A stretch of 63,085 nucleotides of DNA, counting the filler, from Hausera hauseri (Eukaryota), in NCBI GenBank assembly GCA_046269625.1. It is 10 parts of 10 records of this genome, joined end to end, with 100 filler letters (N's around TTAATTAATTAA, not from the genome) between each part and the next. Parts side by side here need not be neighbours in the genome. Positions count along the whole stretch, not along the records: positions 24,975 to 33,524 come from JBJURY010604332.1; 9 more parts are not named here. The stretch is one strand, 5' to 3'. A model generated the notes under the pieces. The model searched no databases. It was given only the letters and a program-made list of their open reading frames with translations, and was not told where the DNA came from. Of the stretch, positions 1 through 50,699 are shown in pieces (position 1 is the first letter of the stretch; each line of letters opens with the position of its first letter). The translations under genes were made by a program, and so were the position numbers.

Positions 1-118
1 GTGCGTGCGTGTATCATTTTTTCTACCCCATGACTCATCCGCGAACCAAACTTTTCCTTCTTTCCGCGGGGGGGGGGTTGGTTTGGTGCGCTCACATCCC
101 CCTACTGACGATCCCTGT

Positions 119-1760
119 AAAAGGCTGAGAAAAAGTATTCCATTACTGAATTAGAAACCTCACCCGTTTAAGAAGCACTTCGACATTTTAGCGTTTACGC
201 ATACGGAGAGAAAATCATAATTGTTACTGATCATAAAGTTGTCACAACCCTGAAAAGGCGGGCAAAAAATACCACCTGTAGGCTGAATAGATGGTTTGAA
301 GAAATTTCTAGATATAATATTGAATTTCAGTATAAGCCTGGCAACAAACACGTGGATGTCAATGCACTATGGAGACTAAAAACCAAGACAAGTGTAACTA
401 CGGTAATGAAGAAAGCTGAGCTTGAAGAATTAATAGACTGTGAACGCGCTTTGACGTTGGACAAAGCACTGAAAATCTCAACCGATCAGAAAAAGGATAA
501 AGTTGTCCAGCAGATTATGGAATTTTCTAAAGGGATACAGTACCGAAAGGACGACAGCTTAAGAAACATTTATGCAGTCATGTACACTAATATTGTGTCT
601 TGAACCATAAAGGCCACGAAGACATTTTGTATTATGTACGGAAAGAAAGGAAATTAATAGTCATTCCAAAAGGCTTACGCACCGAAGTTTTAATGGCAGA
701 ACATGATTCATATTTAGCAGCACACATGTCATGGAAAGAGATGCTGGAAAGAATATTAAATAAATACTTTTGGCCCACTATCTATATTGATATGAAGAAT
801 TGGATAAATGCTTGCAATGTATGTGCAACTAAACAGAAAAAGACGAAAAATTATGTGGCAGAGCAAAAACCAATTGCCGTACCAGACAGACCTATGCAAG
901 CCATGTCAATGGACATTATAGGACCGCTACCTACGATTCACAAAAATAATAAATATATCCTAACTTGTATTGATCGATTAACTCACTTTGTCAAATTGGT
1001 AGCGATAACCGATCAAAGACAGAAACATTGGCAGAAGCTGTAGTAAGAAGAATAATTTGTCGATATTGGCCCCCATATCAAATACTGACAGATGGTGGAA
1101 GAAATTTTACCAGCGAATTGCTTGAGAAAATTATTAAAATATTTGAGATTGAGCGGTTAACAGCCACTACATACCATCCTCAATGTAATGGAATAGTTGA
1201 GTGAATGAATGCAACTGTCATACGCATATTATCCACAGTAGTAGCCAAGGACCAAAAAGGTTGGGACGAATTTTTAGTAGGAACTCAATTTGCCATTAAT
1301 ACAACACAACATCCAGCGACAGGATTTACACCATTCTTCATGATGTATGGACGTGAAGCTGTGTTACCCACAAGTTTAGAAATGACACTATACACGCTCA
1401 ATCCCGAAGATTTTAAACAAAATTTTTTGCAGAAGTGCTACAGACGCGATTGAAAAAATGTTGGGAATTTGCCAAAGAATTGTTTCGAGAATATCAAGAG
1501 CAGTTTTAAAGGCAATATTATAAAAAAGTAAAACCACACGATTTAGAACAAGGAAATTGGGTTTATGTACATTACCCAGTAGCTAAGAAAGGTACGTCGT
1601 TAAAACTGACTCGTACAGGCAGAGGACCATATAAAGTTACTAAAATTACGCCAGCTACGGTGTACATCAACAAGTATGGAAAAGAAGACGTCGTATCAGT
1701 ACAGAGAGGCGTTAAGACATATATACGACCCAATAAACGTTACAACCTACGACAACGAGA
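119..1760 (+). pseudogene. pol: Gypsy pol: RNase H C-terminus plus integrase (zinc-binding, rve core, GPY/F), with stops and frameshifts
   Basis: EHDSYLAAH..YFWP..CNVC (ORF 600-1043), SMDIIGPLP, ILTDGGRNF, YHPQCNG (~1170), TGFTPFFMMYGRE, RGPYKV (~1621). Confidence 0.92.
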
Positions 1761-1764
1761 GATG

Positions 1765-3200
1765 AAAACTTCTTTAATAATTGCTAGACCGATATCATAC
1801 ATTCAGATAGTTTTAGCACTGTCGTTAATTGCTTCTTATATCCCAAAAGCACAAACTCAAGGGTGGAATGATGAAACTACCCTAGGAGACGTATATGGAA
1901 TTCGGAAGAGTGGATTAAAGCCGAAAAACATTATAACGGAAAATAAACCAACGCCCGAAGAGATACAAAAACGAGAAGGCACTATTTTGTTACAACTAAT
2001 GAAGGTTCATTACTTTTTGCCCGACACTGTGTGTGCTGGATTTAAAACTTGGAGACCGCATCACAATTTTGGACGACTTCCAGTTGTACTATACGATGTA
2101 ACACCAAAGAAGTAAAAAACTGAGATTTTGAACCCGGAGATTACACACAGTGCTGCGACATAGATTATTGACATATCTACATCTTTACTTATCGACTGTA
2201 CTTACCAGACTCATCAGAAGTTTATATCGAAGTAAACCAACAACTTCAGTTAGTTATTCCCACTTGGACTAGACGATTCGAAATGAAACTCAACGAAATT
2301 CTACAACCCACCGACCCAAATATAAGGCTATCAGATGAAAACATCAAAAGAATTCAGTAAATAAAGAAAAACAGTGCTTCCAAGTAGATGCTCGAAGAGG
2401 ATTAACTCTACGTCAAGAAATTAGTATCGTTTTTGAAACAGTAAACGGGAAAACACCGAAAATTGAATATTGTTCTGTTCATGCCGGTGTGCAACACCCA
2501 TGTTGTAAGCTACCAATAAACCAAGAATTCAAAATAAGATTTGACTTATATCAAGTACGACCGAAAAAACGGAGCAAACACTTTCAAACATATTACCAAG
2601 AGAATAGAATATAGAGGATTCCAATAGAGACGACAACGAAAAAGCCAACAACTCGAGTTAGCACCATTACTCAAACCGTTACAACAGGTAGTGCACCTAA
2701 AAGAAAATTAGAAAGTGTACCTATCAAGTATTCGGGGCATCGATTTAGAATTGTGTTCTTTGTAGAAGAAAAACTAAATTACGATATAAATATAAGCTGC
2801 CGAACAACGTATAATAACCAAATTGTAACATTACTTAAAAACACTTAATAGACAGAATGCAATTTGTTAAAACCGCAATCCGATTACATAATACACGTAT
2901 ATGCAGAGAATAAACAAAACCAAACAATTACATTGCGTACCTTAGGTGAAATTCGTGCAGAATCGCATATATACGAAAACATAGACGATGAAATCACAAC
3001 TCCAGTCACCATGCAAGTAACAATGGGATTAACCACTTTACCGATAGTATTAATTGTCGTACTATCAAAGTTTGTTCTCATTATATTAATTGCGATTTTT
3101 CGGTTAGTTGCCAAAAATTGTCATTCTAAGCGTACTAAAACTACAGAATGAGAACTAAGGGAATTAGAAACCTCTATTGATCCGTATGATAAAATAACCT
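1765..3200 (+). pseudogene. Retrotransposon-borne type I membrane protein with signal-like segment, Thr-rich stalk, fibronectin type III-like domain and TM helix
   Basis: Hydrophobic IQIVLALSLIASYIPKAQTQ in frame with the integrase tail; LKPQSDYIIHVYAEN (FN3 LxPxxxYxIxVxAxN pattern) and TM LPIVLIVVLSKFVLIILIAIF in ORF 2864-3151. Confidence 0.6.
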
Positions 3201-3314
3201 GACAACTACAGAGCGGGTTATTCTATCATCAAATAAAGGATTGGTTATATTTCAAGACCATCCTTTATTGTAAAAGTAATCCTTACTGTTTATTTTTCAG
3301 ATTAGAGTATTCAC

Positions 3315-5911: not shown

Positions 5912-6058
5912 AGACGTTCAAAATTTGTAAATACTGTTATAAGCAGCATGTTGTAAATAATTATTATTTTATGGCATTTTTTCATTATTGTACAAAATTA
6001 GAAATTTTAATCGACATTCAACTAGTTAATTAACTAGTTATTAGACTTGTGCATTGAA
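5904..6058 (+). repeat. Start of 3' LTR (truncated by contig end)
   Basis: Begins TGT right after the PPT; sequence switches to AT-rich non-coding. Confidence 0.6.
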
Positions 6059-24289: not shown

Positions 24290-24874
24290 CATTCTGGGAT
24301 GGCAGTGCCGGTGATTCAAGAGTAAAGTAGTAGAATCCTTTGTACTCGCCTAAGAAGGCGTATAGGTAAATGTGGAGTTAGTGTCCACAGAAATACTGTT
24401 GGTTCTTCTGGTTTTAATAAGGTTCAGATATGTCGTCCGGTCTAACGTCCTGGATTTTCGATTAAAGGCATAGTGTAACTAACATTAGCCATTATGTCGT
24501 TCAATGCCCGATAATCTACACAGAATCGGTGGCTTCCGTATTTATTTGAAACTATTACCACGGGTAACGACCATTCTGATCTTCTGCTCTCGATTATGCC
24601 AGCTTGCAGCATTTCATCAAGTGTTTTTTCGACAATTTCTCTGTTCCCTAACGGCGTCTTGCATGGCTTTAAACTTACAGGAGAGTAATCCTTATAGTGA
24701 GTGTGTTTTGCCAAGCATCCTCATGTTTCATCACAAACGTCTCAATCCTCTCTCTATGTACTGGATCTGCTTTTACGTGACTTACTTCTGCTTTCACTTT
24801 TTCGCCACAGACCTTCTCTTATTTCTTTCGACACTTTATCCCTATGTATTCTCATTTGTCATATCGCTTCTGCT
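24290..24874 (-). mobile_element. pol: Gypsy reverse transcriptase N-terminal fragment
   Basis: EMLQAGIIE..SEWSLPVVIV..GSHRFCVDYRALN..YTMPLIE. Confidence 0.88.
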
Positions 24875-24974: not shown

Positions 24975-25400
24975 GATAACAGACGATTAAATGATAATAA
25001 CCGAAATCGAGGTTTCGATAATAGAAACGCCCATAATAGAAATCAAAGAAATGATAAAAATTTTAATAATCGAAGCACATACAACTCGTATAATAAACCG
25101 AATTACAGTTCAGATAGAAACCAAAGTGGTTACCGACCTAACGTTAAATACACTGATAATCGAAGTAACGAAATTCGATATGACGGAGATTATAGACAAA
25201 TGTTACAGGGTCAAAGTAAGAATACAAACAGAGCGAAATCGCCCGTGAATGAGGACGGCAGACAAAGGATTTGTCGGAATGGAAATTTAATTTGCTTTAC
25301 ATGCGGAAAAGAAGCTCATATTGCTAGGTCATACCCAAATCCTAGAAGTGTCACATTTACTGAACCAAACAAAACACGTATGATTAAAAATAACTTAGAA
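24975..25400 (+). pseudogene. gag: gag nucleocapsid region: N/R-rich stretch and zinc knuckle
   Basis: GNLICFTCGKEAHIARSYP (CCHC knuckle, last Cys mutated). Confidence 0.8.
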
Positions 25401-28199
25401 GCCATCTGTGGTAAACGAGGTGATATAAGTTTGATCATTGAAATGCAAGATCTACGCAGATCCGTAAGAAATCTATGCGAAACTACAAACCCTCAAATAA
25501 TGAACGCTAGAAAAGAATACGAAAAGAAATTACGATTGATGGAAGTTTATCATGGATTAAGAGAACCACAAGCTGAAGAAGAATGGGCACTAGCACCAAA
25601 TAATACTAATATGGCGCATAAGAAATCTATTCCGCAAGGAATAGCACAGTCGGAGAAACCACCGACATCTCAAAATGTAGAAATAGAAGCAGTAACACAT
25701 AATCCAGATGAAACAACGGATGAAGTCGAAAGTGAATTTATCGGACCCTTAGTTCTCAAGATAACGAAGAATATAGGTAGAAGCCCATCGCCTAAGAGAA
25801 AATCTAAGACACGATCACGATCGCCCATTAAAAGGGATACAGAATAAAAAAGAGATTTTCATACTGCTATCCTAAGAGATGACTCGCCCTTAGAGATTTC
25901 TATTACGCCTATAGGGATTCCATAAGTGTTAGAAACGCCAGAGATGATAAATGTTAATGACGAAATAAACGAAATTTGTCCGATTCCCGCTAGTGAAGAA
26001 GAAACGGACGATAATAATGATCCGGATGCGAGAAAATGGAAAGTTCGACGTTCATGGAAAAATGCTGATAAATTAAAGAGGATGAAAATTAAATGTCACA
26101 ATCCAGAAATACTCCGACATAATTTAGAAAGGCTTAAACAAATCAGTAAACAAACAGATATATCGGGTAAGGGATAACAGTTTGCGGAGAAATTATACCA
26201 ATGTTTAAAATTATGCAGTGAAGGGCAACTCGATAAAGCAATTGAAGTAATACAACCGGAAGAAGAACCACGAGATACGTTGATAAAATGGAACCACGAA
26301 TTAGAGTCATGGATTAAAAGTGGAGTAGAATTTTCGGAAGGATAGAGTAAGGACGAGGATAGCGTCGACATAAGAGTCGCTGAAGCGAAAACATTACTAT
26401 CCAATTTAGAAGCAAATCCCAAGTTGAAAAGAGTAACACGCAACTTAGAACGTAAGATGGACGAAATACGTTATATAATGATAAATCGGCTTAGAGAAAA
26501 ACAGGTTAGCAATAGAAGTAATATCGATTTAGAAATATTGTGTATAGACCCTATGGACATTCCTCCTTTAATAGAGATGATAAAAATGGCCTTTGTCGAA
26601 AACAGACGATGTGCAGACTTAAAGAACCGCATCAAAGTGGAGAATGAAAAAAGATCACAGATCAATAGTTTAAGAAACCAAATTATGTTCCCAAGCCATG
26701 AGGAAACTCAATACGTAATGGAAGCTTGTATCGCAGAACTGGACGAATATAAGGACGAGTTTAGTTATGTCGGTCGGATTATGACTTTCCTAAGAGGACC
26801 GGACGATAAGTTAAAAGATGCGTATAAGATGTTAGATAAGGCTATAATGGCGAAACCAGTAATCGCAAATTAATTGTCGGAATGGTCCGAGCTAGTAAAC
26901 CGACTAAGCAAATTAGTAGAAGACCGAAAAAAAGAATTCCCGCAAAGTGAACCAATGGTAAAGAAGCAGGTAGAAGAAAGTGCACATAATCTAGGCACAA
27001 TGCGAATAGAAATAGATATCCGTAGCAAATTCAAAGCATTAAGAGGGTTAAAATTTATGAAAAGAGAACAAGAAATGTCAACATTGGAGGAGATCTATAA
27101 ATTGATCGAAGAGACGAACTTCACGGAAAAACGAAACATGATTTATGATGTAAACTTAAAGTTAAAGGTTGCTCGACTAGAAAGAATCCAATACTTAACG
27201 GTAAAACTGCTCGACAAAATATCAGCACAAGACACTGAAATCTTAGACATCTGTCCCGGACATCGAGATACGTTAACAGATGCCATAAAATTCTTGCATA
27301 AACCATAAGAATGGATGACCGGATCGGATCAGAATTTTCATACCAAGTTGACAAAATTAAGAGGCGACGTACACTTCAGCTTTCACGAACACAAGTTCGC
27401 AAAGAAATTATCGGATGCAATGGACCCAGACTCGAAAGTCATAAATAAGATATACGAGTTAGCTTATCTCTTGGTAGAAATGGCAGAAATTAGTAATGAG
27501 AAATGAGGCAATTGATGCCCAAGATACAGAAAGTAGAAGAAACATGTACTAAAACCAAACAAAGAGCAACAAGGTTGGACGAACTAACGAAAGAGCTTGG
27601 AGCTTATCGGAACAAATATGCTTTTACTGAGTCAGAGATCAAAAATAAACGAGAATTTATACAAAGATGGCAAAGAAACGTAATTATTGAACTAACTGAT
27701 TATCATCAAAAAGGATTCATTGATTTTAATGGATTAGGCTAACTACTAAAAAAGATTCAGTACGCTTGTGGGAACAGAATAGGTTTCCGAACTACACATA
27801 TGAAAGAAATACAACCAATGCTGAAAGAAATTCGAGAAAATGTGCAAAGAACAAACACAGCTCTAATAAACTGTGGACTCCCAGATATTGGGAATGAACC
27901 AGAATGGGATGCTTACTTAGAAGAAATAGCGGCTGAAAAACCAGTAACTCCAGTACATTTAGAAGAAATAGAAAGGTATCCGCAGAACAGGAAATTCAAT
28001 GTAGAAATGCTCCTCGACTCAGCATTAACCGAGAAGGACATGATGGAATCAGTTAACGTGAACATAACTGAAAATAAGCTCAGAGAGCTCATTCCGACCT
28101 TAACTAAATTATCTAGCGAGAATACAATTTATAACATAGTGCCAAAACTCCTTATAAAGAAGTATGCGAATATTCTGAGAACTTTACCTGAAGTAGTGA

Positions 28200-28420
28200 A
28201 GAAATTAATGATATCATTCGACTAGATAAAAGAAAAAGAGTGTGAAATGACTACTCATTCCTACGTAAAGGATGTAAGAGAATGGTTACTGAACAATGGC
28301 GGAACAAATGAGTTAAATTACAGATTTTACTTTAGAGGAAGAATACTCGACGATTTAGAACAACTAATAGATGTCGGAATCATTCCCGGCGAAACAAATC
28401 GGATAGTAATAATAATAGCC
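28200..28420 (+). pseudogene. Ubiquitin-like domain inside the retroelement polyprotein
   Basis: VKDVREWL..G....YRFYFRGRILDDLEQLIDVGIIPGET.IVI parallels ubiquitin [38 protein letters not shown]. Confidence 0.7.
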
Positions 28421-29109
28421 AACGAACAAACAAAAGAAGAAGACACGCGGAAGGCTAAAGCGGAACACTGTGCAGGACAAATCCTGGGAGTACGAGACGC
28501 AGCAATGTATTTTGAGTACTTACAGACGGATGAAGACAAGGAACAATACAAGAATCTAGTGCCATTAAGTGTACTGCCACCTAATGCTCCAAAACCGAAA
28601 CGACCAGTATGCAGACCTAGGAAGCCCCGAGAAGAAATCGACTATAACGGAGAACTAATCAAAGAGTTAAAACAGATGTCAATTCCCACTTTTAATACAT
28701 ATAATGAAGAATTAAGAGAGTTGATGAGAAATTTAAAACGTATCGTAAATTATTCGAGTCTCCGTGGAGGTACATTAGATGAAAAAGAGAGGGAAATGTT
28801 TAACACAGCTAGAAAAATGAGAAGTTCTCGTTTCAAACTGTCTAAAAGTAGTCTAACCGATGATGTAGTAGTTGAGAAGATCATGGTGGAGAATACGATA
28901 GAAGAGCTAAGAAAAGTATTATTATACTTGGCAATAAAGACAAATCCAACTCGAGAAAATAAACTAAATCAAGCCATGAGTTTGGCACGAAAGGCATCCA
29001 GGAAACTTCCGTGTGAAATAAACAGGCCAAGTGTGGTAACAATAGACTTGAAGACGCCTTACGGAACTTGACGACAACAGACAATATCAACAAGAAGAAT
29101 CAATCAAAT

Positions 29110-31039
29110 TTGTTAATCAGTTTACTCACTATAATGATGTTAATAAAGCAGATGGGTGCTGTCACCGTCTATGATTGTGATAAATTCAAGCTTGGACAAA
29201 AATATTCACTAAGACTTAGAAGCATGGAAAGATGCCAAACCACACAAATTGGAAACAAAAGAAAAGAACTACTTCCTATACCAACAACAAGAATTCATAT
29301 CTCTGGACGGCATGGAATGTATGCTGACACGATCTCGTAGCATTTTTCACTGCGGGTTAATGCATGGACACTCCTCGATAATTAAACCAACAACCCCTCC
29401 AATTCCAATGAATTTAGAAAGACAACATTGCAAACAAGTTTGAGGAACTCGAAGACTGAAATGGGATAGCATGGAATTAGAAATGCAACCCGGAAAAATA
29501 ATCAGAGCATATAAGATAGTAGCCGGAAGACTAGATCTGCATAATGGGCACTGTAGTGGACCGGAATACGATACCGGAAAAGGATTGGAAGAAAACGTAG
29601 TCATAGTAGACTTTTACGAATCGGAAATGCGAGTTCAGAAAGTAATGTTCCATAGTGTCACTAAGCTATATATAAGAATAAAAAATGTCACATGCAAGAC
29701 GGAACTTGCGCCTTCAGAAGTTCTGTCGTCATATGAGAACCGCCCACTGGAAAGGCCTGTAATTTTATTAAGATCAAAGAACTAAAATTTAACGGAAAAC
29801 GATACGTAGATAAATCCGACATCAGTTCAAGAGCATGTGAGGACGTATCAGAGCATCATACACCTACGATATTAATCTCTGATCAACATGGATTGAAATT
29901 CATAAAAAAGGAAATGATTTCGCGATGTGAAGTAGTAATGTTTACCACTAACTACGAAGCGTTCTTCGTCGTAGAAACGGAGATAAACGCGAAAACATAC
30001 AACTTAGAAACACAAGATATTAGAATTGAAGATTATCTGAAAAACCGAGATGATTATTTTTATTATAAAGGACAGGTTGGAATAGCAGAACTATACCACA
30101 AAATGATGACTAACGATTGCAAATTAGATACGGAAATCATGAGGACAAAATTAGCCCTCATTTATGCAAACCTGGAATTAGCCTCACCAATTATTCCCAT
30201 AACAGAAGGAATTTTTGGCCGGGTTACTGGTGAAGTTCTACTGACTTATGAATGCGAGAAAAGAGATGTACCAATTAATGTTGAAGAAAAACGATGTATA
30301 CAAGAGTTCCATGTAATCTACCAGAATGCGCCACGTCTAGCCATGCCCCTCAATAGAGTGTTGCTTGATAATGCAACCCAACCCACGATTTTAAAGGATT
30401 GTAAAGCAAGTTTTGGCGAACCAATGTTTAGGCGTAGAAAAACGGATTGTGTTAACTTACCCAATGGAGCTGTCACTATTATTCCTAAAAACTAACTGTA
30501 ACTAATTTAGCAAAAGGAATTACTGATGACAAGTTCCAGGATACGTCTCAAAAAGGCATTTATTGACCAAAAGAGATCGACGCTTTTCGACAATTTCTCG
30601 CTTTTCCACGACAGCGAACACACGAATTAAACCGAGCTATGGCATCATAGTAAATGACACCCGTTATTAGACTAAATGGGAATCCTTGCTTGGCGCGAAC
30701 TATTACCAACGAGTAACCACCGAAATACTCTGCAAAATATGGAGAAGATTTTTAATTTTTGGACAAGCTGCATCTGGATTCTTACCGATCTATTTTATAG
30801 TACAACTAGTAAATGCGGTAATCCAAGCGGTTATAAGCGGGTACGAAATATTTACGTTAACAGGATTTTCCTGTAAGATCTTAACTGCAATTGTCACACC
30901 GTTAGGCAAAATGCTCAAAGCGTATGAGGAAAATCGATGGAAAAATGACGTTGAACGCCATGTCGGCTATTATAATTACAAACGACGAGCAAGACCCATG
31001 TTTCGATTGAAACACAAGGTTAAAAAACAAATGACGTGA
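29110..31039 (+). pseudogene. env: Chuvirus-like (class III fusogen-type) envelope glycoprotein
   Basis: Signal-like LLISLLTIMMLIKQMGA then VYDC; ECMLTRSRSIFHCGLMHGHSS; LYHKMMTNDCKLD; GEVLLTYEC; CIQEFHVIY; TM IWRRFLIFGQAASGFLPIYFIVQLVNAVIQAVISGY..GFS..ILTA, matching recalled chuvirus G motifs. Confidence 0.8.
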
Positions 31040-31272
31040 AGAAACAATTCAGATGATGATGAGCCTAAGGGAGGAGAAGTAATCCTAGGACCAAATAGAC
31101 ACAAAATGTGTTCAGTAATCAAGGCACCTTTGCCCATCATGCCGCCAACGGCTCCAATATACGAAGATTGCGACAGAACATCTATGGTGTCATATAGACT
31201 GGCATTCTGTCAGAAACCTTTTAGCTATAAAGATCCTTTTAAGGAACAAAACAATACGGAGTAATTAAGAAA

Positions 31273-32523
31273 ATGCAGATCACTAACCAAAGACAAGCGG
31301 AAGATGACCATGAAATATTGTACTCACCGAGAATAGCTTGCAATATAAAGACAAAACCAACAGTCTGGGGAACTCCAGGAATGAAATCGTTCCAAAATCC
31401 GATAGTACAAGTACCATTAATTAGAAACAATGCGAAAAATATGGAAGTTAACAACTTGTACCCTAACGAAGAACTGAAACAGCTGACCGAAAATATTATT
31501 TCATCACCAGAAATAACAATAAACGGACATAAGATTTCTTCGATTAAACTACCAAAGGACGTGTCAAGTTGTTACGGGTCAGTTATGGAAGAAAGACCCT
31601 TCGCAAAAGTTACCATTAAAGATGGGGAAGTCTATGCCTTAATAGACACCGGATCGGAGAAATCATTTATAAAATTAGAATCAATACTGCCGACACTACG
31701 AAAACAACTGCAGACAGCATCATTATCAGACCCCGGCAGCATAGGAGCCTTCGGGCAAGAATCCAAACCAAAATTTAAATGGAGACCCTTGGTCCAGTTA
31801 ATGGGTCAAATTCCTAGACACGAGTTCGCCCTAATGGACCAACATACCGATGGCATAGTATTAGGATATGATATACTGAAACAATTACCTAATATCGCAA
31901 TAAATTTACAGATTGGAAAACTACTTGAAATTGGACCAGTGAAAGGGATTAAAACAATGAAAGAAAAGAAGCAAGGAGAAGTATGGATTCCTGTCGACGA
32001 AAATATTCCGCCTAAAACCGGAATGCTAATTTATGCTCAAATCCGCAAAGAGGATGACCAACTAGTATATTTTGAACCACAAGAGGACGTAAATCCAAAT
32101 ATCATACTTAGTAACATTTTGACAAGAGTAACGACAGGAAGAGTACTAGTCAGATTAGTTAATAACGCACCAATCTCTGTAAAATTGTACACCAATACTA
32201 CGTTGGGTCACACTTATAAGGTGTCAGCAATAATAATCGAAGAAAAACCATATAAATATGCTGAATTTCCACCTCATGTTGAAACAAAGTTTTCGCGGGA
32301 AGCATATTGCCAATTTTACGAACTACTATGCAAATATAAATCAATTATTGCCCAAAATGAAGAAGACATAGGTAAAGCGAAAACCTTAAGATTAACCATT
32401 CCATTAAAAAAGAAACTTGGCTCCAATGATGAAATTGAATTGGAAGAGCAAAAGATGTTAAAATGGTCCTCACCGCCACATTCGTTAAGGCCGGAAATAA
32501 CAAAAGCAGTAGAACGTGTGTAA
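31273..32523 (+). CDS. pro: Retropepsin aspartic protease and spacer domain
   Basis: VYALIDTGSEKSFI and GIVLGYDIL; open 416-aa segment of a broken polyprotein. Confidence 0.85.
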   Translation: MQITNQRQAEDDHEILYSPRIACNIKTKPTVWGTPGMKSFQNPIVQVPLIRNNAKNMEVNNLYPNEELKQLTENIISSPEITINGHKISSIKLPKDVSSCYGSVMEERPFAKVTIKDGEVYALIDTGSEKSFIKLESILPTLRKQLQTASLSDPGSIGAFGQESKPKFKWRPLVQLMGQIPRHEFALMDQHTDGIVLGYDILKQLPNIAINLQIGKLLEIGPVKGIKTMKEKKQGEVWIPVDENIPPKTGMLIYAQIRKEDDQLVYFEPQEDVNPNIILSNILTRVTTGRVLVRLVNNAPISVKLYTNTTLGHTYKVSAIIIEEKPYKYAEFPPHVETKFSREAYCQFYELLCKYKSIIAQNEEDIGKAKTLRLTIPLKKKLGSNDEIELEEQKMLKWSSPPHSLRPEITKAVERV

Positions 32524-33524
32524 AAAGCTGACATAATACGACCAAGCTATCGATCTTGGTACTCACCAATACTCATGGTTAAGAAAAAAAGGTATCACTA
32601 AACACCGGTTCTGTATAGATTACAGAGCCATAAACACACTTATGATGAAAGACTCATGTTCACTACCATCAGTAAAAGAAGCTCTAGATAGATTATCAGG
32701 AGCAAAATGGTTTACCACACTGGATTTACAATCCGGATACTGGGAAGTGGAAATTAAAAAAGATGATCGTTATAAAACAGCGTTCAAGACACACGACGGA
32801 GTTTATGAATTCAACGTTATGTTATTCGGTATAACAACCGGCCCAGCTATCTTCACCAGGATGATGAATAAAATGTTAATGGGACTTGATCATGCGTTCG
32901 CATATTTAGATGATGTAATGATAGCATCAAAAACAGAAAACGAACATCTAAAGGATATCGAGGATACTCTTATGCGATTGGAACAGGCAGGATTGAAACT
33001 GAACCAAAAGAAATGTAAGTGGGCACAAAATGCTGTATCTTATCTAGGACATATAGTCGGAGAAGAAGGGTCAAAACCAGATAATTCTTTACTAAACAAA
33101 ATATCGAATTGTATGGAATCCCAGAACCAGAAAGAGTTGCGACATTGATGAGGCCTATGTGGATATTATGCCACTTATCTGCCAGATAATTCAAAAATAA
33201 ATGCACCATTATATCTACTATTAAAAAAAGGAATCAAATGGAAATGGACCGATGCTGAACGAAAGGCGTTCGACGAAATGAAAAATATTTTAACAAGTGA
33301 ACCAGTGTTGAGATACCCCAATTTTAATTTACCCTATATAATTAAAACAAATGCAAGTAAAGAAGGGATTGGTTATGAATTGGCCAAAAAACGAGAAGAT
33401 GAAGAATTGGAGCATCCGATTGCATATGGAGGACTGGCGATCAAGAGGGCCGAGAAAAATTATTCAGTAACTGAACTAGAAACGCTAGCTGTAAAAGAAG
33501 CCTTAAGGCATTTCAACATTTACG
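32524..33524 (+). pseudogene. pol: Gypsy reverse transcriptase and RNase H
   Basis: RFCIDYRAIN, WFTTLDLQSGYWEV, KTAF, AYLDDVMI, IKTNASKEGIG, PIAYG..AEKNYSVTELE. Confidence 0.95.
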
Positions 33525-35409: not shown

Positions 35410-38116
35410 TTATCTTAAGCGCCAATGTCCGTACGCCCAACTTTTATTTCTCCCCACCCACTTTCGCTTATCATCGTTGCATGACAAAGCAACCTTTTTA
35501 TTTGTGATGGTATACAGCTGGTGCTCAATCGATCGTATGTTCGTTTGAGACACAACAGCCGTTCCTCCTTCTCCGTCATCTTGTCCATCATAGACACGGA
35601 GATAATCACCGTGATTTATTTCCGTCTGTTTCAGCTGGATGCCTTTTGCCCGCATTTTCGGCCCACAGTCTGTTAGAAGACTGTAACACTTTGGGCACAA
35701 AAATATCCATTCCTTGTATTGAACCCGGCCTTCACTTTCGTCCTTGAAGCAGTCGATTTTGTTTGTTACCGCGCTGCTGTACAGTGAATGGTCCGGTGGG
35801 TAGTTGGACGCGTCCAGTAGTCCATCTGACATCATTTGTCGGAGCAGCTGGTCTCGATTGATGTTTTTCAGATCAAGAAAGAAGCTGTCTGTGTCACCGG
35901 CAACGACACTGATCTTACAGTCGCCGCTGCCGCCGAACATTTTCCGGTAACGTGCCAAGTCGCAATATTTGAGCTCGTACATTCGCAACTTGCTCAGATC
36001 CAATACCACTTGTCCAATGTAGCTTGGCCGGTCCAGTACGACTTCTTCCCAGTTTAGAAGCACGGCGACCAATCCATCGGCAATGTGCATTGACCGTCTG
36101 AACTAAGCCTTGCTGGTGTACGTAACCAGTCGTTTTTCGTTGTTGGACAGGCGCACATTGAGCCGCTTCTTCAGATTTTCCACTGTTTTCCCGTCCAGTG
36201 AATTGTTTTTGAGCTTGTAATAGTCCTTTTCGAACTTTGTACAAATTGCAGCTCGTTTCCCGGAATTTCCATCAATGTATGCCTTGAATATCGGCACCTG
36301 ATTGAAGCGGATTGCACGAATCAGCTGTGTGACGCGTACACCGAGCTGCATGTAAAACTGCAGCAGACGCCAATGAACCACGTAATTCGATTTGGGTTCA
36401 TGTGTTATGATCTGTTTCTTTACTTTTGAGTAGCCGGGTAGACATTGGCTAATTGGTGCGACCGGCAGTTCATCCAGAAAATCATGCACCTCATCCGGTA
36501 CCACGAGATCAACTTCCATTAGGTAACAGACTGAGCTGCTTTCTGTCGTGTTTGCTGCTTGCAGACTGTCCACCAATGTATTTCGTTCTTGTTTGTCCAT
36601 TATCCATTCAAATAAACCTTACTGCAAAGGTTGCGAAAGCGCCCAGCCGTTCGGGTTATTAATATCGATGTACAACATTGACGTTGTATCATCGTCATCA
36701 CTGTTTACGTGATGCTTCTTGACAAATGTCATGCCGCCACGAATGCCAACGTCAAACAGTTGGTATATTCCCGGGTCTTGTAGCAGCTCAATGTCTCGAT
36801 CTAGTGACATTAGTTCCGATGCCCAACTCATTCCCGGTATTGAGTAAAAGTTGAGCGGTTCCAACCTATCTTCATCCAACGCTTTAGCCCAAAATGTCTG
36901 AAACACATTGGCTAATAAGTACACATCGAGCTTTAGATACTGAAGCATGTAGTCCAACATGTTTCTACAATTGAGCTCTGTTCAAGATTCCTGTGCTCTG
37001 TGATATTCATCTTCTGTGATACCTGTCCATCGCGGCGGTAATTCCTCTGTCGTCCGGAGTCGCTCATATGACACGGCAAAGTCATACGGGAATATACCTT
37101 TGCTCCGTGTAATATGTGTGGGAACTGCGTCATTGCTATCGACACATCCGGCAAGGCATTTACCAGCTTCGCCAGCGATTAATTGAGAAATTGCAATGAA
37201 TCGAGGAAGCGTACCTGGAACCGGTTCATGCGTGCCAATAGGGAGAGGTACTTTTCCATCTTTGTTGGGATTATGGATAGCTCCCAGTGCGGAAATCCAT
37301 TTACGGAGCATTTCAGAATATGGTGACAGTCATAACCCCTGAAGTTATGCTTCTCCCAAGTATTGACCAGTGAAATGATCGTGATCCGATACGAGCCGTT
37401 CTAGTGCGTGAAACGGTAATATTTTGTGACACAGGTAACATTCATCGGTCGCAGAGAACATCAGCTGTTCATATTCATCTGTCCAAATCAATGGTTTAGT
37501 GAAATTATTGCGATAGTACGGCTCTATTTCCGTTTCCACTATCGTTTCTAAACGCTGCAGGAAATCACGTACAGAGTTCCAGCCGTGAAAGGCGTAATAC
37601 GGCGGCTGACTGACCGCTTTTATTGGGGCAACCAACATACAAACGGCAATTGGAACGTGTTTTTGATCATACTCGTTGTGCCGTGGTAGAATTGCCTCAA
37701 TATCGGAATATATTATATATGCCAAACTGTCCGTTTTTGACCAGTCACTGAATCGGAAGCTCCTTTTTGAGTGGCATGACGTACATGGTTGTTCCCGTTG
37801 AATTCTGCTTGCACAGCGCCACATGTTTTTCCCATGCTGCCTTTGACCTGAAACCACGCAGACATACAGGACACCATATACATTGTATACGCTTTTGGAC
37901 AAACTGATGGTGATCCATGTTCAACAGTCGGTCCAAATTGGTCACTGTCATGTAACGGAACTTTTCTTTTTGTTCCAGCAGTAACAAATATATTGGGCGT
38001 CCATTGCGTTCCGACTTTGATATATTATGTCTACATGGGGGTTCTTATATATCTCTTCGTTTGCCGGTATTTGTACAATTGTATTGTACCGCAACACATT
38101 TATTACCAGTGTTGGA
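35410..38116 (-). pseudogene. Protein-primed family B DNA polymerase (Polinton/adintovirus type), nearly full length, degenerate
   Basis: CPVC..H..C finger, IIYSDIEA, DHDHFTGQYLG, KGIFPYD, YLKLDVYLL, GIRGG, YIDINN..GWALSQPL, YYKLKNNSLDGKTVEN, GDTDSF, FKDE, PKCY, DDKR. Confidence 0.93.
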
Positions 38117-38734: not shown

Positions 38735-40433
38735 ACGGGTAAAATGATTGTGATCCGGTACGAGCTGTTCCATAGCATTGAACGCTAACCTTTTTTGACA
38801 CAGATAATATTCATCGGTGGCAGCAAAAGCAACTGTTTGTATTCATCTGTCCAGATCAAAGGTTTAGTGAAATTATTGCTATATCACGGTGCTATTTCTG
38901 TTTTTACTATTGTTTCCAAGTGTTACAGGAAATCGCGAATATAGTTACAACCATGAAAAATGTAATACTACAGTTGACCAGTGGATTTTATTGGGACAAC
39001 CCAACATACCGACGGCAAATAGAACATGCTTCTGGTAATAAACGTTGTGCCGTTATAGAATAGCTTCGATATCTACATATACCACATATGCAGGAATGTC
39101 CGTTTTAAATAAGTCACGGAATCTGAGATTCTTGTTAACAAGCATTACGTACATTGTTGTTCCTGATGAATTTTGTTTGCATAACGTCGTATGTTTTTCC
39201 AATGTTGCTTCTGACTTGAAACAATGCAAGCATACAGGACACAATTTACATTGTATACACTTTTTGATGAACTGATCATGGTCCATGTTTAACAATCTGT
39301 TTAAATTTGTCACGGCCACGTAACGAAAATTTTTCTTTTGCTCTAATAGTAGCAAATTTACTAAACAGACTTTCGGGTTCCGACTTCGATAAATTATGTC
39401 CACATGAGGATTCTTGTAAACCTCTCCATCCGTCAGTATTTCTACTATTGCGTTATACAGGAAAAAGTTTATTGATAGTGTCAAATTACGCCGTTCAAAA
39501 GCCGGAATGCTTTTCAGTTTCATTAGCATCCAGCACTCATCAAAGTCCAATTCGAAAAAATATTGCCGATACTGTTTTGGACGATATGCATGATCTCTGG
39601 ACACTTCGTTATATTTTAATACAGCCAGAATGCTGTAAAGAAATCAGTATTCCTCAGTATTTTTTACATTCACTATTGCAAGAGACTGCTTCAGAGCTGC
39701 AGGTGTCGGTATGTATGATCGTCCAGACGAATATATTATATCACTTGGCTTTGTTATAATAAAGTCGAGAGTGATAATTTTTATAATTCTTCATCCACTA
39801 CCTTTTTCGGTAGAGTTGGCGATTTTCTCATCGAGCCTTTCGCCTATATCAGCAATAAATCTTCGGAATAAGGTACAGCTGAATGTAACAGGTACCACTG
39901 TTTCCTGTCACCTTGTACATTTTGAAATTTACATATTGCACTTTGCAGTGGTGTTGGAATTTCTTCACTTCTGATTCTAATCGAATGCCCACACTGGACG
40001 GTACGTGTATTAATTGCAGTGTTGTTCTCGCTGACATGTCCACTTTCATGTCCACGTACGACATGTTTAGAATCTAATCTTTAGATCGTACTTCACAGTA
40101 ATGGGAAGGTAAAGTTCCTACTGATGCTCCTGCTGCTGATGCTGCTGATGACAATGCTGCGTACTGATGCTTTAATGTATTCTTTAAGGCTTGTTAAATC
40201 TTGACGTTTTCTGCTTGTTGAGGGAATGCTTTTGTTTGGTGCGTCCATCACTCTTTGCCTTTTGGAGCGCTAAAACTGGTTAAATGATTCCTATGGTCGT
40301 TATAAAATTGTTCATAGTTGATTTGCGCTAAAACTATTGAACAACCCGGACAAATATAGGCCCGTTTACCATGCACCGTTTTGGTGCCACAGTATTGCTC
40401 CATTTTACTATGACACCCATCAACGTTATGCAC
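38735..40433 (-). pseudogene. pPolB N-terminal region (paralogue of the contig F copy)
   Basis: LLLEQKKNFRYVAVTNLNRLLNMDH, LCPVCLHCF..KHTTLCKQNS, VYVDIEAIL and DHNHFT align with 37350-38100. Confidence 0.85.
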
Positions 40434-41049: not shown

Positions 41050-44000
41050 AACCTCCTCTGACCTACCCTCACCATCGAGCGGCGATCGGTGGGCCTTGAC
41101 TGGGGTGGCTGGCATTTGGCTTGAGCGTTTTGAGAGCCATTTCGCCGGAGGTTTTGGCGCGCCCTCAATTCGTGCGACACATCGCGTCCCGGGCATTTTA
41201 GACAATTTTCTATACCTCGTTTCTTTTTCTCAGAATAAACAAGTACACTCATGTTACGTGCGTAAAAAGTCATCAGTTGAAAACTTGTCTGGTGTGTTGT
41301 CACATCAAACTAACTTTAGTAGTTTTCGCCTTAACTTCAATGGTTTTCTTCTTCATCCATCGGACATTCTCACATCTTTTCCCCATTTATCTTTAACACT
41401 TCTGCTCACCATACACCTTTGCTCAGCTGGTCTGATCCAAAAGCCTCATCTAACGAACAACAAAACTTTGTCGACATTTCTGCTCTCAGTGTACCTCTAA
41501 ATCCCCCTCTACCTCCGCCGTCTACCATAAACCTACCTTTCGTAGAATACTTAGCCAACAAGCAACATTCCAGCCGAACATGGCTGGACATCCATGCAGC
41601 TGGGTTAAAGTCAAATAATATGGTCGACTCCTTCCTTAAAGCAAACAGCTTTCTTATACTTTAGCCTACCAACATTAAATCGCCGTTTTCCAACTTTTTG
41701 TAAATATTTCAAAGCAGTGACCCATAAAAAGCACTCTTTAATTAGACCTTAAAAATCACGTAACCATCTCTGGATAATATTATCCACAAATATTTCTATG
41801 ACAACACCATAGGCACATTAAAACCCTCAGAATTTCTTCAAACCTCGTTAACTCAGTTGAGTACTCTTGGCGTTAATCAAGCAAACAACGCCGATTTACT
41901 ACGCAGATATTTTCTGCGCTCTTTACCCAGAGACATACGTGCATTATTAACTATAGTAGAGGATACATCGACACTACAAAAGCTGGCACAATTGGCTGAT
42001 AAAAGCCGTGAGATATTACTCGCACATACAGCCCCATTAGTCATTGCTACGCTGCAAACATGAGCAACACAACAGGTTGACGAAATATCAAACATGAACA
42101 GTCAAATTAATTCTTGACGTACCAAATATGCCAATTTCACTACTCACATCGAAAATCGAAGCTTTGGCCATGCCTAGGCGGAGTCGTTTCGATGCTAACC
42201 ATAGTCGCACTTTGTCTCAAAGTTCAAGACATACGATGTAGCCTACACGATCAATGGTGTGTTACTACTACTCAAAATTTAAATATAATGCCACTAGATG
42301 CTTCATAAGTTGCAGATTTATGTTCCCATTTTAGAGGATACAATATTGTCTGCATTTACCATAATAAGTTTAACTTCAAAGCCACAACTGCATCACAGGT
42401 TGCACCTTTGTTAACCGATCAAATCCATCACAACCTACTTCTTCAAATAACTTAAATACTGTACCTCCAAAAATCTTATAAAGCCACCAGATATTTCGGT
42501 ACATACTGGCACGGTCAAGCGTTTTAATTCTGATAGCTGCACCTACACTGTTTTCACTTTAAAAGCCTCCTTGACATCCAAACCCAGTCAACCAATTAAC
42601 TTCCTTATTGATTCGAGGCCGCTGTCTCTTTGTTGCCATCGTCCATCAAAACAACAGCCATTTCACCATCTAACACCAGGTTGTATACAGCCAACGGCCA
42701 AGCATTATCTGCGTTCTGCACGTCCTAGATCTCATTCACGTTACCACCATTCTCCGACATTTTGAAATGGATTTTCATCATCGCCGACACACAATCCCCA
42801 ATAATTGGCTCTGATTTCCTATCTTTCTGCAACCTCGTTACAGATTGCAAACAACGTCGGATCATTAAAAGCAGTTCAACAAAGCCAACTTCTACAAATA
42901 ACCCCCCACGAACCACGCATCCTATCTCATCTATAAAATCGATATTAAAGAAATCATAAGCCAACGTAAATAAAAACCTTATTGATACCAATATAAATAA
43001 TCCAACGTTTTAGTTGAAGTCCGATAAAAAAGGAACGAAAAGCGTTGACAAAGATGATTGAGGCAACTCGATTTCTACCGTTTCTTTCACTGCGTCCAAT
43101 CAATTCACCGCCATAACGACAACATACTTTACTACGCTTAGCCAAGGATTACGACAGTATTTAATCAAGACATGTTTTCGTACGATAAAAAATATGCAGA
43201 ATTTCGACCAGCTGGCACTACATTCCATCATATATATCACAGAAAATCTTAGGCCTGTTAGGCAGAAACTCCGATCACTTTCAACACACCGTCGACTGGC
43301 TATCCAAGCGGAGTTCTCTTCACTCGAGCAAGCTGGAATAACAAAACGCTTTAAATCAGCGTGGGCATCACCACTCCACGTCGTCCCAAAAAGGTGGCAC
43401 ATTTCGTCCATGGGCGATTATCGCCAACTTAATAATGTCACTACAATGGATGCTTATCCTCTACCGTTGATTAAGGATATGTTACATTCTTTGCAAAAAA
43501 CCACAATTTATTCAACCGTAGATCTTGAAAAAGCCTACCACTAAATACCGGTAGCACTCGAAGACGTCCAAAAACGGCCATAATAACACCCTATGGTCTC
43601 TTCGAATACGCATTCATGCCGTTCGGTTTGAAGAACGTAGCACAAACTTTTCAACGACGCATTGATTCAGTCCTTTCAGGTTTGCCATTTGTACATATAT
43701 ATATCGACGATATACTAGTCGCATCGACATAACCCAAACAACACTAAGTACATTTCAGACTAGTTTTCCAACACTTACACAACTATAATTTGCAAGTTAA
43801 CTTTTCTAAGTGTCCCTTCTTCCAGAAAAAGGTTAATTTCCTTCGCCATGTCATCACACCTAATAATCACAGTCCATAGCCTGATAGCATTCAACAATTA
43901 CGAAACATTGAGTTACCAAAAACTACTACTGACATGCATAGTTTCCTCGGGACGTTACATTTTGCACATAAATACGTCCAACACTGTAGTCAGTTAACTG

Positions 44001-46036
44001 CTGCTTTCGCTCAACCCGGAGCAAGGCCGACAAAAAAACATATATTGCATGTCAGAACTTGTAAACCAGTTTGACGAACTCCGCGACAAGCTTAAAACAG
44101 TTGAAATATTAGCTTAACCAAAATCTGATGCTGACCTCATTTTGAAAACCGATGCATCGGTTCTTCACCAAATATCCCAAGATATAAATAAGCCACTAGA
44201 ATTCTTTTCACGTAGGCTTTAGCCACAAAAACGCCGTTATTCCACATTCGACAAAGAACTCTTGGCCACATTTAGCTCTTAAACATTTTTCTCATTTGCT
44301 TATCGCTCGTTCCTTCACCATTCAAACGGACCACAAATCTCTCGTCCACGTAATGAACACGAAATAATCATCACTCTGACAAGAACGTCTTATCTCGTAC
44401 CTGTTAACATTTAACATTAAAATTTGCATTATTTCTGGTACGGATAATTTAATAGCATATTTCTTATCACGACCAGTCGGTGCAATTAGCGTCACACCCA
44501 TATTCTCCAAAGAACAGTTAATCCAAAATTACCCTTCAGCAAATATTCCTAAACAATACAAATCTGTCCAAATCATCGATGGCGTAGCAATGGACACGTC
44601 GAGACCTTGGCAACATTTACCAATTTTGGCACCTTCTCTCTAACAAATAGCATTTAACTATATCCATTAGTTGCATCATCCAGGTTCCAAGGCTACATTC
44701 CGCCTCCTCAAACGTAACGTAACATGGCCATCAATGAGGTCTGACGTACAAAACCGGGTTAGGCAATGCGTATCTTGCCAAAAATTTAAAGTAGCTAAAT
44801 ATCTTAAACCACCATTATTCCATTTTCCATGTACATCCCGCTTTGAGTCAGTTCACATAGATATCGTTGGCCCATTACCTTCTGATAACGGCCACCAATT
44901 CACCTTAACAATAATGTACCGCGCGTCTCGTTGGCCGGAAGCCGTCCCTTTACGCTCCATCAATATAGACTCCATTGCCAACGCATTCATAAGTATTTGG
45001 ATTAGCCGCTTCGGTTTACCTCGCTATATAATTACAGACCAAGGACCTCAATTTGAGTCAAATCTATTCAAGTCCTTAGCTAATCGACTGGACATAAATC
45101 ACATACACATAACTCCATATCATCCCCAGTCGAACGGCTTGTTGGAACACTTTTATCGCACTCTCAAGATCTCGTTAAAAATCCTGGTCGAAACTAATAA
45201 GAATTAGACAACCATTTTTCCTTTTATTTTACTGGGGTGGTGCAATACGCCGTCTACTACCATTGGTTGCGCACCCGCTAAAGCACTTTTCGGTATCACA
45301 ATTTGTGCACTTTTTGAACTCACCGACTTGGACAACACACCAACTGACGAAACAATTAGGTCTGCACAAATTACTTTGTTCATCTAAACCAGGATTCTAT
45401 CTGCAAAACAGTACATTGTGACAAAACATACTTACCTGACTCACTATTTAATGCAAAGTTTGTGTGGTTAAAAACCCTTCACCTTCCGGTTTTCAACCAA
45501 ACTACTTAAGACTATTTAAAGACCTCAACGTTATCTCACACACAGTTACGACATTAAAAAATGATAAGGAACAAAACGTTTACATAACTAACGTGAAACC
45601 TGCATTTTTGTTAATGATACACCAGACCCCTCAGCTGAGCCTTCAAAAACCTTTCTCGAGTCCTTCAATCCGTCTTTTGTTCTACTTCCACGACAACCTG
45701 CTACTTCAAGACCTGCAGAAATTCAATACACTATACTAAACGACATACCGACCAGTTCTCAAGCTGCTGACATGTTCAATCAAAACCTAACTTCATTTCA
45801 ACCATCTCAACAAACAAGTGAACAGCACGTTAAACAAAGCAAGACGGTTGCCTTCAGCAAATACATCAGAGAACAAAATACCGATAAAATTCAACGTCTC
45901 GTCCATACAAAGACCCATTAGTTCGCTTACACCATTCTGCTTTGTCTCTACTTTCTTCTTTCTACCTTTTTATCTTCTTACAGCGTCTTTTTCGTAACGG
46001 GGGTAATGTGGTGCCGCGGACTCGGGCGCCACCACA
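41050..46036 (+). mobile_element. Gypsy LTR retrotransposon (CsRn1-like), near-complete gag-pol, heavily degenerate
   Basis: gag KPSEFL..FLRSLP..LAQLADK; CHCC-like motifs ~42257 and ~42347; PR INFLIDS; RT SAWASPLHVVPK, GDYRQLN, YIDDILV; RH KTDAS, YSTFDKELLA; IN HHPG..CVSC, VHIDIVGPLP, ITDQGPQF, YHPQSNG; PPT ~45997. Confidence 0.92.
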
Positions 46037-47681: not shown

Positions 47682-47930
47682 GAATGGCATCCTCTTGAAA
47701 CAATACTTGCCACTCCTGATTGAGAATGCGGTCTTCACTTGGGAGTCTTCGTCTAGTTCAACCTGATAGTAGGTGTTACCTAAGTCAATAGATGTAAAGA
47801 ACTTAGCTCCATTTAGTGTGTCTAACATTTCTGAGATTTTGGGTATCGGAAATACCGGCTTTTCGGTTATCTGGTTCAGTTGTCTAAAGTCCAGACACAA
47901 ACGTATGTCCTTCTCGTCCTTTTGCAAACA
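47682..47930 (-). mobile_element. pol: Gypsy reverse transcriptase fragment
   Basis: IRLCLDFRQLN..FPIP..GAKFFTSIDL..YYQV..KTAF..RMPF. Confidence 0.9.
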
Positions 47931-47964
47931 CAGACCCGTGGAGTGTTCCACGATGACTCGCATG

Positions 47965-49270
47965 TCTTAATGATGCCGCGGTGGTATATCTTTCGTAAAT
48001 AAGCATAGGGTTGTCTCTGGTGAAAGCATCAGTCTCTTGTATATAGATGTAAATAATTTTCACGGCTGGGCTTTATCGCAACCACTGTCATTTGCGAATT
48101 TGGTTTGGATATATGATGAGAATAAGTTAAACAGTCTAACTGAACAATTACCCTATATTGACCGTCTCACGGAAAAACGAAGTTGTATTTAAAGTCGACT
48201 TGAGCATTCCTGCTGACAAACATGATAAATTGGACCTACTGCCTCTAGCCCCAATTAATAAACGTCCGCCTGGTTCAAAAGTTAAGAAATTGCTGCTTAC
48301 ACATGAGCGAAAGTCCAACTATATTGTTCACTACCGGCTCTTACAATTGTACATCGATTTAGGCGCTGTAGTTGAAAAGGTACATCGAGCCGTTGAGTTT
48401 GACCAGAGTTATGGCTTTAAGGATTATATCGATTTAATACTTCTAAGAGGGCTGCGGCGGAAAATCCTTTTGAAAAGGACTTTATTAAACTTAAGAACAA
48501 CAGCTTATATGGCAAAACAGTAGAAAATTTGCTGAATAGGTCTTATCTGAGATTGTGCACTAATGCTAAGAAGCTTGTTACATATGCAAGTAAGGCCCAT
48601 TTTATAGAGAGAATAATAATAGCTGATGATCTAGTTGCCGTTCTCCTCAATAAAGACACAGTCACATTAGATAGACCCTCATTCATCGGTCAGACCGTAC
48701 TTGATCTATCCAATTTATGGATGTATGAGCTGAATTATATCGACTTGGAGACGTATAGGCACCAGTTTCAGTGTGAACTTAATGTTGATGCTGGTGACAC
48801 AAACAGTTTTTTCATTGAATGTCGTGGCGCGGATTTAAAATCGCAACTCTTACCGGCAATGATAGCAAATGAGCAGTTAGATACATCGAACTATGATAAG
48901 AGTGATCCGCTGTACTCGACTCGTTTCGCAGCTGTAATTGGGAAATTTAAAGACGAGAGCAAGGGCTGCGTTCAGTATCAAGAGGCAATTTTCCTACGGC
49001 GGAAATCCTATGTCCTCAAAACCGAATCCAAACCAGTGCTCAATTGCAAGGGCATAAATATCAAGCGGACAGACTTGCAGCTCAGTAATTACCTACAGGC
49101 TTATGAAACCGGTTGCAGTACTATGGCGGATAAGGAACGAATTGGCAGTAAAAACCACAAGCTCATGACAATCAGTTCAAAAAAGAAAGCACCGGATCCG
49201 TTCGACGACAAACGCCACTGGATTGAAAAGAATAAAAGTGTTGCATAGGAACATTATTGTATAAATATGT
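47965..49270 (+). pseudogene. pPolB C-terminal polymerase domain (Polinton/adintovirus type), degenerate
   Basis: RGGISFVNK, LLYIDVNN.HGWALSQPL, KLKNNSLYGKTVEN, LDRPSFIGQTVLDLS, GDTNSFF, GKFKDE, DDKR. Confidence 0.92.
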
Positions 49271-50243: not shown

Positions 50244-50699
50244 TCATTTAGACGGCAATACGCGGCATCTGACTGTCATTGTGTTGTTATGGATGGCACC
50301 TTTTATTGATTTTAATTCTTCATACGTCTTGAATTGAATAAATCCATCTCCATAATTTCTATCATTGATTGGTTTGTTGTATGCTTCTCTTCTGTGTTCA
50401 GGATATTTCCTTTCTGCTGCAGCAGCCAAACAAACTTTTTGTGACAAAACAGGCAATGCAGTTTGTTCATCAACAATTTCAATTAGAATTGTATCCTGCA
50501 TTGGCCATTGCAATTGGTTGTCATTTGGACTTTTCATTAGTTTGAATGTCAGATACAATCTGTATGATGAACTCATCCAATAGTAAAGGCACATTTTGTA
50601 TCCATCATTTCCATTTGAATGAAATGATGGGCTGTATTCACCTTTGCCTATTTTATATTTGTCATCAATTCCTTCAATCCGCAACACAAAAACATGCAT
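50244..50699 (-). CDS. TRAF-type MATH domain protein (C-terminal exon)
   Basis: FVLRI..YSPSFHS..GYKMCL..LYLTFKLMKSPNDNQLQWPM..IEIVD..GFIQF..EEL..NNTMTVRCRV follows the TRAF-C pattern; intact to the stop codon. Confidence 0.82.
   Translation of the reverse strand: MHVFVLRIEGIDDKYKIGKGEYSPSFHSNGNDGYKMCLYYWMSSSYRLYLTFKLMKSPNDNQLQWPMQDTILIEIVDEQTALPVLSQKVCLAAAAERKYPEHRREAYNKPINDRNYGDGFIQFKTYEELKSIKGAIHNNTMTVRCRVLPSK

Follow-up and report, generated by a model that had tools for sequence, protein, structure and literature searches.

Burro/GYPSM1 designates giant gypsy-like long terminal repeat (LTR) elements of planarians which harbour an in-frame mononegavirus-like envelope gene (env) between gag and pol; decayed copies have been described for Dugesia japonica, and a dUTPase-like domain between protease and reverse transcriptase (RT) was identified by means of HHpred in the same review (PMC6431247). 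The order gag-env-pol has also been reported for elements of nematodes, bryozoans and flatworms by Chary and Hayashi (eLife 2026, PMC13524379), where GAG, ENV and POL are handled as three open reading frames and where Sacco et al. 2022 is cited for non-canonical metavirus elements of nematodes in which env precedes pol. Mosquitoes harbour, in addition, the Anakin elements, which are of the BEL/Pao type and carry a chuvirus glycoprotein (PMC7642597). What is said here of these publications refers to parts of each. The present analysis deals with a stretch of 63,085 nucleotides of DNA from Hausera hauseri (assembly GCA_046269625.1), hereafter the window, of which contig 24975-33524 very probably represents a decayed copy of a multi-copy, Burro-like Ty3/gypsy element. 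The env of this element, of the chuvirus-G/herpes-gB type, is located between gag and protease, and active members likely made a single membrane-spanning polyprotein.

Results

Domain order and envelope glycoprotein

Ten small contigs, connected by linkers of N, make up the window. As the finding is in its entirety confined to one of them, contig 24975-33524, a chance join created by a linker was rejected. This contig is element sequence throughout (36-38% G+C, A-rich + strand), and along it the order knuckle, cargo, ubiquitin-like domain, env, protease, RT and RNase H is observed (Table 1). Capsid, integrase and both LTRs fall outside, both ends of the element being cut by the contig ends.

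Three of the 13 pieces of the contig scanned with Pfam match PF24664 (Monjiviricetes_fusion), namely 29737-30492 (E 1.8e-16), 30671-31036 (E 5.6e-15) and 29213-29440 (E 1.8e-6), the last one scoring 26.6 bits and thus slightly below the cut-off of 27. Five collinear pieces in three different + frames together account for positions 2 to 609 of a 620-position env profile that was derived from 13 relatives; env, with a length of ~620 codons, is therefore full length and interrupted by four frame changes. At least two in-frame stops are present within it as well. The copy is dead, as had been recognised in an earlier reading of the DNA from its sequence alone (hereafter the sequence-only reading). 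The translation contains YDC, the HCG motif, GEV...C, CIQEFHVIY, DTG and YLDD, and the Cys-rich chuvirus-like glycoprotein which that reading had placed ahead of the protease is clearly present.

The fold was computed on the relative P0010 with 77 sequences rather than on the env of the contig itself. The best viral matches of the P0010 env model (mean predicted local distance difference test score, pLDDT, of 82) are chuvirus glycoproteins, led by that of Tacheng Tick Virus 4 (E 2e-42), while its best matches among solved structures in the PDB are herpesvirus gB proteins, led by varicella-zoster gB (E 8.5e-14). Since contig and P0010 can be aligned throughout env with 27-35% identity, the contig env is, by homology to this model, assigned to the class III (gB-like) fusogens, which agrees with the fusogen homology suggested by the sequence-only reading.

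The region used for the env tree, the env core, is present in 68 of 124 rows. In this tree, the contig falls into a set of 11 rows (Shimodaira-Hasegawa-like approximate likelihood-ratio test, SH-aLRT, 96), eight of which are env-protease polyproteins. This bears on the proposal of the sequence-only reading that the gypsy lineage of the contig captured a chuvirus G independently, giving rise to an invertebrate retrovirus of a new type. The chuvirus glycoproteins heading the structural matches of the relative's env and the long branch of the contig in the env tree would fit such a capture. Yet the top sequence matches are retroelement polyproteins and no stand-alone glycoproteins, env groups with these polyproteins, the ubiquitin-like cargo is common to them and the contig, and the layout has been published. 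We therefore consider an independent capture very unlikely.

The pol part is of the Ty3/gypsy type, as the sequence-only reading had assumed, since Ty3 RT (E 5.1e-58), together with Ty3-G Gag-Pol (E 5.5e-57), leads the 12 matches obtained with RT-RNase H in a PDB search. Hence, a BEL/Pao element was rejected; BEL/Pao-specific Pfam families are absent from the matches of the contig and of its relatives. Protease, RT and RNase H are collinear with no integrase found before RT by Pfam, and the relatives place integrase after RNase H. The linker between protease and RT can be aligned to that of the relatives.

Copies, relatives and reading frame

Two public runs, X1 and X2, contain the stretch; X1 may be the source sample, and contig depth is not to be read as copy number. 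From X1 25,891 and from X2 2,160 contigs could be placed on the stretch, the majority being less than 95% alike, and in both runs 30 of 30 bins are covered. The env bins are, in X1 as in X2, covered by many diverged contigs just like the rest of the element, and among the joints displayed (15 in table 5 and 10 in table 5c of the analysis, with 99 more not displayed) none skips env.

Relatives were found by a 50%-cluster protein search with a 252-residue piece of env, which yielded 112 proteins, 25 of them at E ≤ 1e-10, the best ones sharing 28-35% identity. Pfam was applied to 24 of the 112, picked by score or length: env is followed by protease in one frame in ten of these and by RT in five. 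The counts over 124 proteins make use of profiles built from those very proteins, Pfam thus providing the independent count; 119 of the 124 match the env profile, protease follows in 15 and RT in eight, and in none does pol precede env. One open frame comprises env, protease and RT in eight relatives. In the cluster members P0113 (4,844 amino acids) and P0117 (3,003 amino acids), env, protease and RT likewise follow each other in a single frame, and locus L002 exhibits a 2,693-codon frame encoding knuckle, env, protease, RT, RNase H and integrase. A metagenome scan gave two loci out of 219 candidates. Scans of IMG/VR, in contrast, confirmed no relative, neither among 126 candidates obtained with the env alignment nor among nine obtained with RT.

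As diverged contigs cover the whole stretch and relatives carry env in frame, env is a family trait and no one-off insertion. A viral cDNA inserted into an ordinary gypsy copy, i.e. an endogenous viral element, might be suspected in view of the decay of the copy and since chuvirus-type glycoprotein fossils are, according to the part of PMC10084718 considered, often flanked by gypsy fragments. Diverged copies covering the env bins in both runs, displayed joints that never skip env and relatives whose env occupies the corresponding position in frame led us to reject this explanation as extremely improbable. The sequence-only reading had named copies of the RT family without env as pointing to such an insertion; env is covered in the diverged copies.

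The gag-env-pol order in one polyprotein, likewise put forward by the sequence-only reading, is borne out in relatives such as L002. Separate frames, or a regulated stop or frameshift, in place of one polyprotein would be in line with the one stop and one frame change found between env and protease of the contig copy, with the single stop separating the gag frame from env in L001, and with the treatment of GAG, ENV and POL as three reading frames in the part of PMC13524379 referred to above. Against this, 15 of the 119 env-bearing proteins read into protease without a stop. Since the contig copy has many other breaks, including some inside env and RT, the frame change between env and protease is to be expected from decay. 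We thus hold separate frames to be very unlikely as the general arrangement; because of the stop in L001 the single frame is, however, not universal. The transition from env to protease without a non-coding gap, as originally read, is seen in relatives, while the contig copy itself carries the stop and the frame change there.

Among the relatives, repeated aspartic-protease domains are present in P0002, P0005, P0012 and P0113, with up to seven Pfam stretches in P0113, some of them behind integrase; P0113 shows ankyrin and C2H2 matches as well. At NCBI, the env-pol polyprotein P0003 is listed under a Flavobacteriaceae metagenome-assembled genome as a hypothetical protein; animal DNA that was placed in a bacterial bin is the probable explanation.

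The region upstream of env

At about 25290-25331, roughly 3.7 kb upstream of env, a zinc knuckle of the pattern C-x2-C-x4-H is found whose fourth ligand is missing. It shares 41% identity over 27 amino acids with the knuckle of L001 (E 0.001, tblastn), while a Pfam scan of the knuckle gave no match. Of the CCHC gag which the sequence-only reading had placed ahead of env, the knuckle is thus confirmed, albeit in degenerate form and with some 1,250 codons of cargo, helical and ubiquitin-like, between it and env, to which that reading had not referred. Downstream of the knuckle, at 25790-25835, an Arg/Ser-rich run, RSPSPKRKSKTRSRSP, may be capable of binding nucleic acid.

Within the cargo region 25350-28030 the best + frame contains 0-5 stops per 200 codons compared to 10-34 in the two other + frames; no Pfam family was found there at E ≤ 0.001. 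The adjoining segment 28055-28423 is the sole one among 258 chunks of the window to match a profile of five relatives (E 2.8e-13), and it is 31% identical to L001 (E 5.4e-8, tblastn). Its label as ubiquitin-like agrees across the tests but is weak in each of them: Pfam gives E 0.0047 on L001, the match to ubiquitin is gapless and low-scoring, and the Atlas lead stands at 0.80. In several relatives a BCL2-like segment precedes env (in P0010 with a Pfam E of 0.00096, under the cut-off).

A second membrane protein behind integrase

A separate contig of the window, 1-6058, carries the end of RNase H and an integrase belonging to the same wider group. This integrase matches P0117 with E 1.2e-78, compared to 4e-31 for the other integrase of the window (tblastn). 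The contig starts in RNase H where contig 24975-33524 ends, the two being 73% alike over 77 nucleotides; among the contigs laid on 1-6058 no link to contig 24975-33524 was found. Depth, which gives no copy number, is lower behind the integrase than over it. The integrase is followed by a broken second membrane protein with a signal-like segment, a Thr-rich stretch, a putative FN3-like domain and a transmembrane segment (Table 1); Pfam assigns no family to 1774-3100.

Seven relatives reach integrase. P0019 stops inside it, while in the other six the frame extends further and encodes a signal-like segment together with a second ectodomain, as judged from hydropathy for P0002, P0003, P0016 and P0113 and by eye for P0117 and L002. 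A C..L.P.T (FN3-like) domain is common to four of these six, and the profile derived from these four matches chains of Tie2, EphA2, IL-20 receptor and pikachurin (seven of eight rows, best E 0.0059), which contain FN3 domains. Atlas indicates FN3 clusters at 0.91 for the post-integrase domain, the recognition score being low. Neither Pfam nor a single-protein PDB search gave a match for the region, and its fold from a single sequence has a pLDDT of 35. The profile comparison makes it likely, although not proven, that the post-integrase domain is FN3-like. With less confidence we infer that this membrane protein belongs to the family of the contig 24975-33524 element and would serve attachment.

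Herpes gB receives its attachment and trigger function from gD and gH/gL. A comparable arrangement may be considered here, if only as a tentative and rather doubtful proposal: a two-surface-protein retrovirus whose one polyprotein, with four membrane passes, would supply a fusogen of the gB type, encoded ahead of pol, and an FN3-like protein for adhesion, encoded after integrase, the latter giving the attachment/trigger function. If true, this would be an unusual retroelement with a two-protein entry system derived from one chain. How retroelements with gB alone gain entry into cells is a question left open in the part of PMC13524379 considered; it would be addressed if the second membrane protein proved to serve attachment. 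In the literature covered we found no FN3-like membrane protein behind a gypsy integrase, although Grohme 2018, Sacco 2022, Repbase Reports or figures may describe one.

Further downstream on contig 1-6058, about 2.3 kb of additional + strand coding sequence (3150-5500) follow the second membrane protein. This sequence is broken, its longest open piece comprising 217 amino acids, contains no Pfam family at E ≤ 0.1 and is covered by other copies; it possibly represents accessory genes of the same element. The polyproteins P0113, P0117 and P0003 end in T-A-V, T-Y-V and I-I-V, respectively, which resemble PDZ-binding tails, while the ending of P0002 is unlike these.

Table 1. Features of the Burro-like element (contig 24975-33524) and of the separate contig 1-6058, in window coordinates.
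Feature	Position	Strand	Basis and remarks
3' end of gag with a stretch rich in Asn/Arg and a degenerate zinc knuckle	24975..25350	+	Translation; tblastn to knuckle of relative L001
Cargo region, charged, probably helical	25350..28030	+	One + frame nearly open; other copies cover all bins
Helical domain and ubiquitin-like domain, common to relatives, Burro-type cargo	28055..28423	+	Five-relative profile; tblastn L001
Internal signal-like hydrophobic segment preceding env	29113..29169	+	Hydropathy 1.82; aligns with equivalent segment of relatives
Envelope glycoprotein, chuvirus-G/herpes-gB type (class III fusogen by homology)	29122..30916	+	Pfam, profile, fold of relative; broken, 4 frame changes, at least 2 stops
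Env transmembrane segment	30779..30835	+	Hydropathy 2.01
Aspartic protease (DTG)	31588..31887	+	Pfam RVP E 3.8e-4
Reverse transcriptase (YLDD), Ty3/gypsy type	32582..33058	+	Pfam RVT_1 E 2.5e-35; frame change near RT start
RNase H, truncated at contig end	33245..33523	+	Pfam RT_RNaseH_2 E 8.8e-28
End of RNase H and integrase, same wider group	109..1760	+	Contig 1-6058; Pfam Integrase_H2C2 E 1.6e-16
Second membrane protein, broken	1774..3100	+	Contig 1-6058; hydropathy, profile of four relatives
Signal-like segment of second membrane protein	1774-1830	+	Hydropathy
Putative FN3-like domain of second membrane protein	2744-2935	+	Four-relative profile E 3.8e-5, sole match among 258 chunks
Transmembrane segment of second membrane protein	3044-3100	+	Hydropathy

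Further features of the window

A satellite array at 51737-57871 comprises 41.8 copies of a 147-bp unit (82% matches) with signs of two unit subtypes. Broken frames at 35410-37920 (-), 39053-39643 (-) and 48140-49248 (+) resemble, by eye, protein-primed DNA polymerase B of the Polinton type; their sole Pfam match is Endonuclease_7 (E 0.00037). On another contig, a single-exon MATH/TRAF domain of 151 amino acids is present at 50244-50699 (-) (Pfam E 3.5e-15). MATH domains are carried by Burro elements, and no link of this one to the contig 24975-33524 element was seen. Other gypsy fragments (RT, RNase H, integrase) are located at 43062-45411 (+), 47682-47966 (-) and 24454-24720 (-), with no env profile match nearby.

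Discussion

Active members of the family would, by the general topology of polyproteins, be expected to function as follows. The internal signal segment would send the env ectodomain into the endoplasmic reticulum, whereupon the env anchor would halt transfer and the chain would return to the cytosol, where pol could fold. Signal peptidase and the element's own protease would then cut the chain into its parts. Env trimers on Gag particles might eventually fuse these particles with a neighbouring cell. Such transfer, from soma to germline, is mediated by the env of Drosophila gypsy.

Several observations weigh against a decayed Burro-like element encoding one polyprotein. The fold refers to P0010 and not to the contig protein, and identity to the closest relatives amounts to only 30-35% in env and 40-47% in RT-RNase H. 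In the env tree as well as in the RT tree the branch of the contig is long, the latter tree being poorly resolved with one of eight inner branches starred. Among the contigs of the public runs, which are short, no intact copy of the family was seen, and none of those listed for X1, possibly the source sample, or X2 reaches from env to protease. The single stop of L001 has been mentioned above. No dUTPase-like domain between protease and RT was matched by Pfam or PDB sequences, and a profile of four relatives detected no BCL2-like domain in the window at E ≤ 1. Finally, the likeness to Burro is drawn from its published description.

Both the latter point and the BCL2-like domain not being found are the reason why we file the element as Burro-like rather than as Burro. 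As in the account of Burro given in the part of PMC6431247 considered, a gag knuckle, a long cargo, a ubiquitin/SUMO-like domain, a mononegavirus-like env before protease-RT-RNase H and a high copy number are encountered. In contrast to Burro, MATH, BIR, ankyrin and BCL2-like domains were not detected in contig 24975-33524, and one degenerate knuckle is seen instead of two or three. Moreover, the text of that review, so far as considered, mentions no membrane protein behind integrase.

With the GAG-ENV-POL errantiviruses harbouring an env of the HSV/gB type (HSV, herpes simplex virus; PMC13524379), the element shares a Ty3/gypsy pol, a gB-type env and the order gag-env-pol. Judged by eye, the six Schmidtea 'Platyhelminthes_C1a' env rows of that study resemble those of the contig and its relatives, whereas its 10 bryozoan and 19 nematode C1 env rows do not. 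This likeness suggests, with less confidence, that the host is a flatworm. The non-canonical nematode elements of Sacco et al. 2022, as cited there, correspond in having env ahead of pol and appear to differ in env. One match, to a mosquito BEL row, was obtained with six short env motifs in supplementary file 2 of PMC13524379, and the words 'polyprotein', 'in frame' and 'fibronectin' do not appear in its main text. The study lists intact elements, and the broken contig copy would fail its filters. Anakin (PMC7642597, in the part considered) likewise ties the same glycoprotein family to an LTR retroelement, but has a BEL/Pao pol and occurs in another host group, while the pol of the contig is Ty3/gypsy.

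Since an in-frame env before pol has been published for planarian Burro (PMC6431247) and the order gag-env-pol in PMC13524379, the new type of element envisaged by the sequence-only reading cannot be upheld: the layout is already in print, and the contig adds a fairly divergent family, not a new kind of virus, to a published, little-studied group of enveloped gypsy elements. The metagenome proteins show that, within this group, an env embedded in the polyprotein is common.

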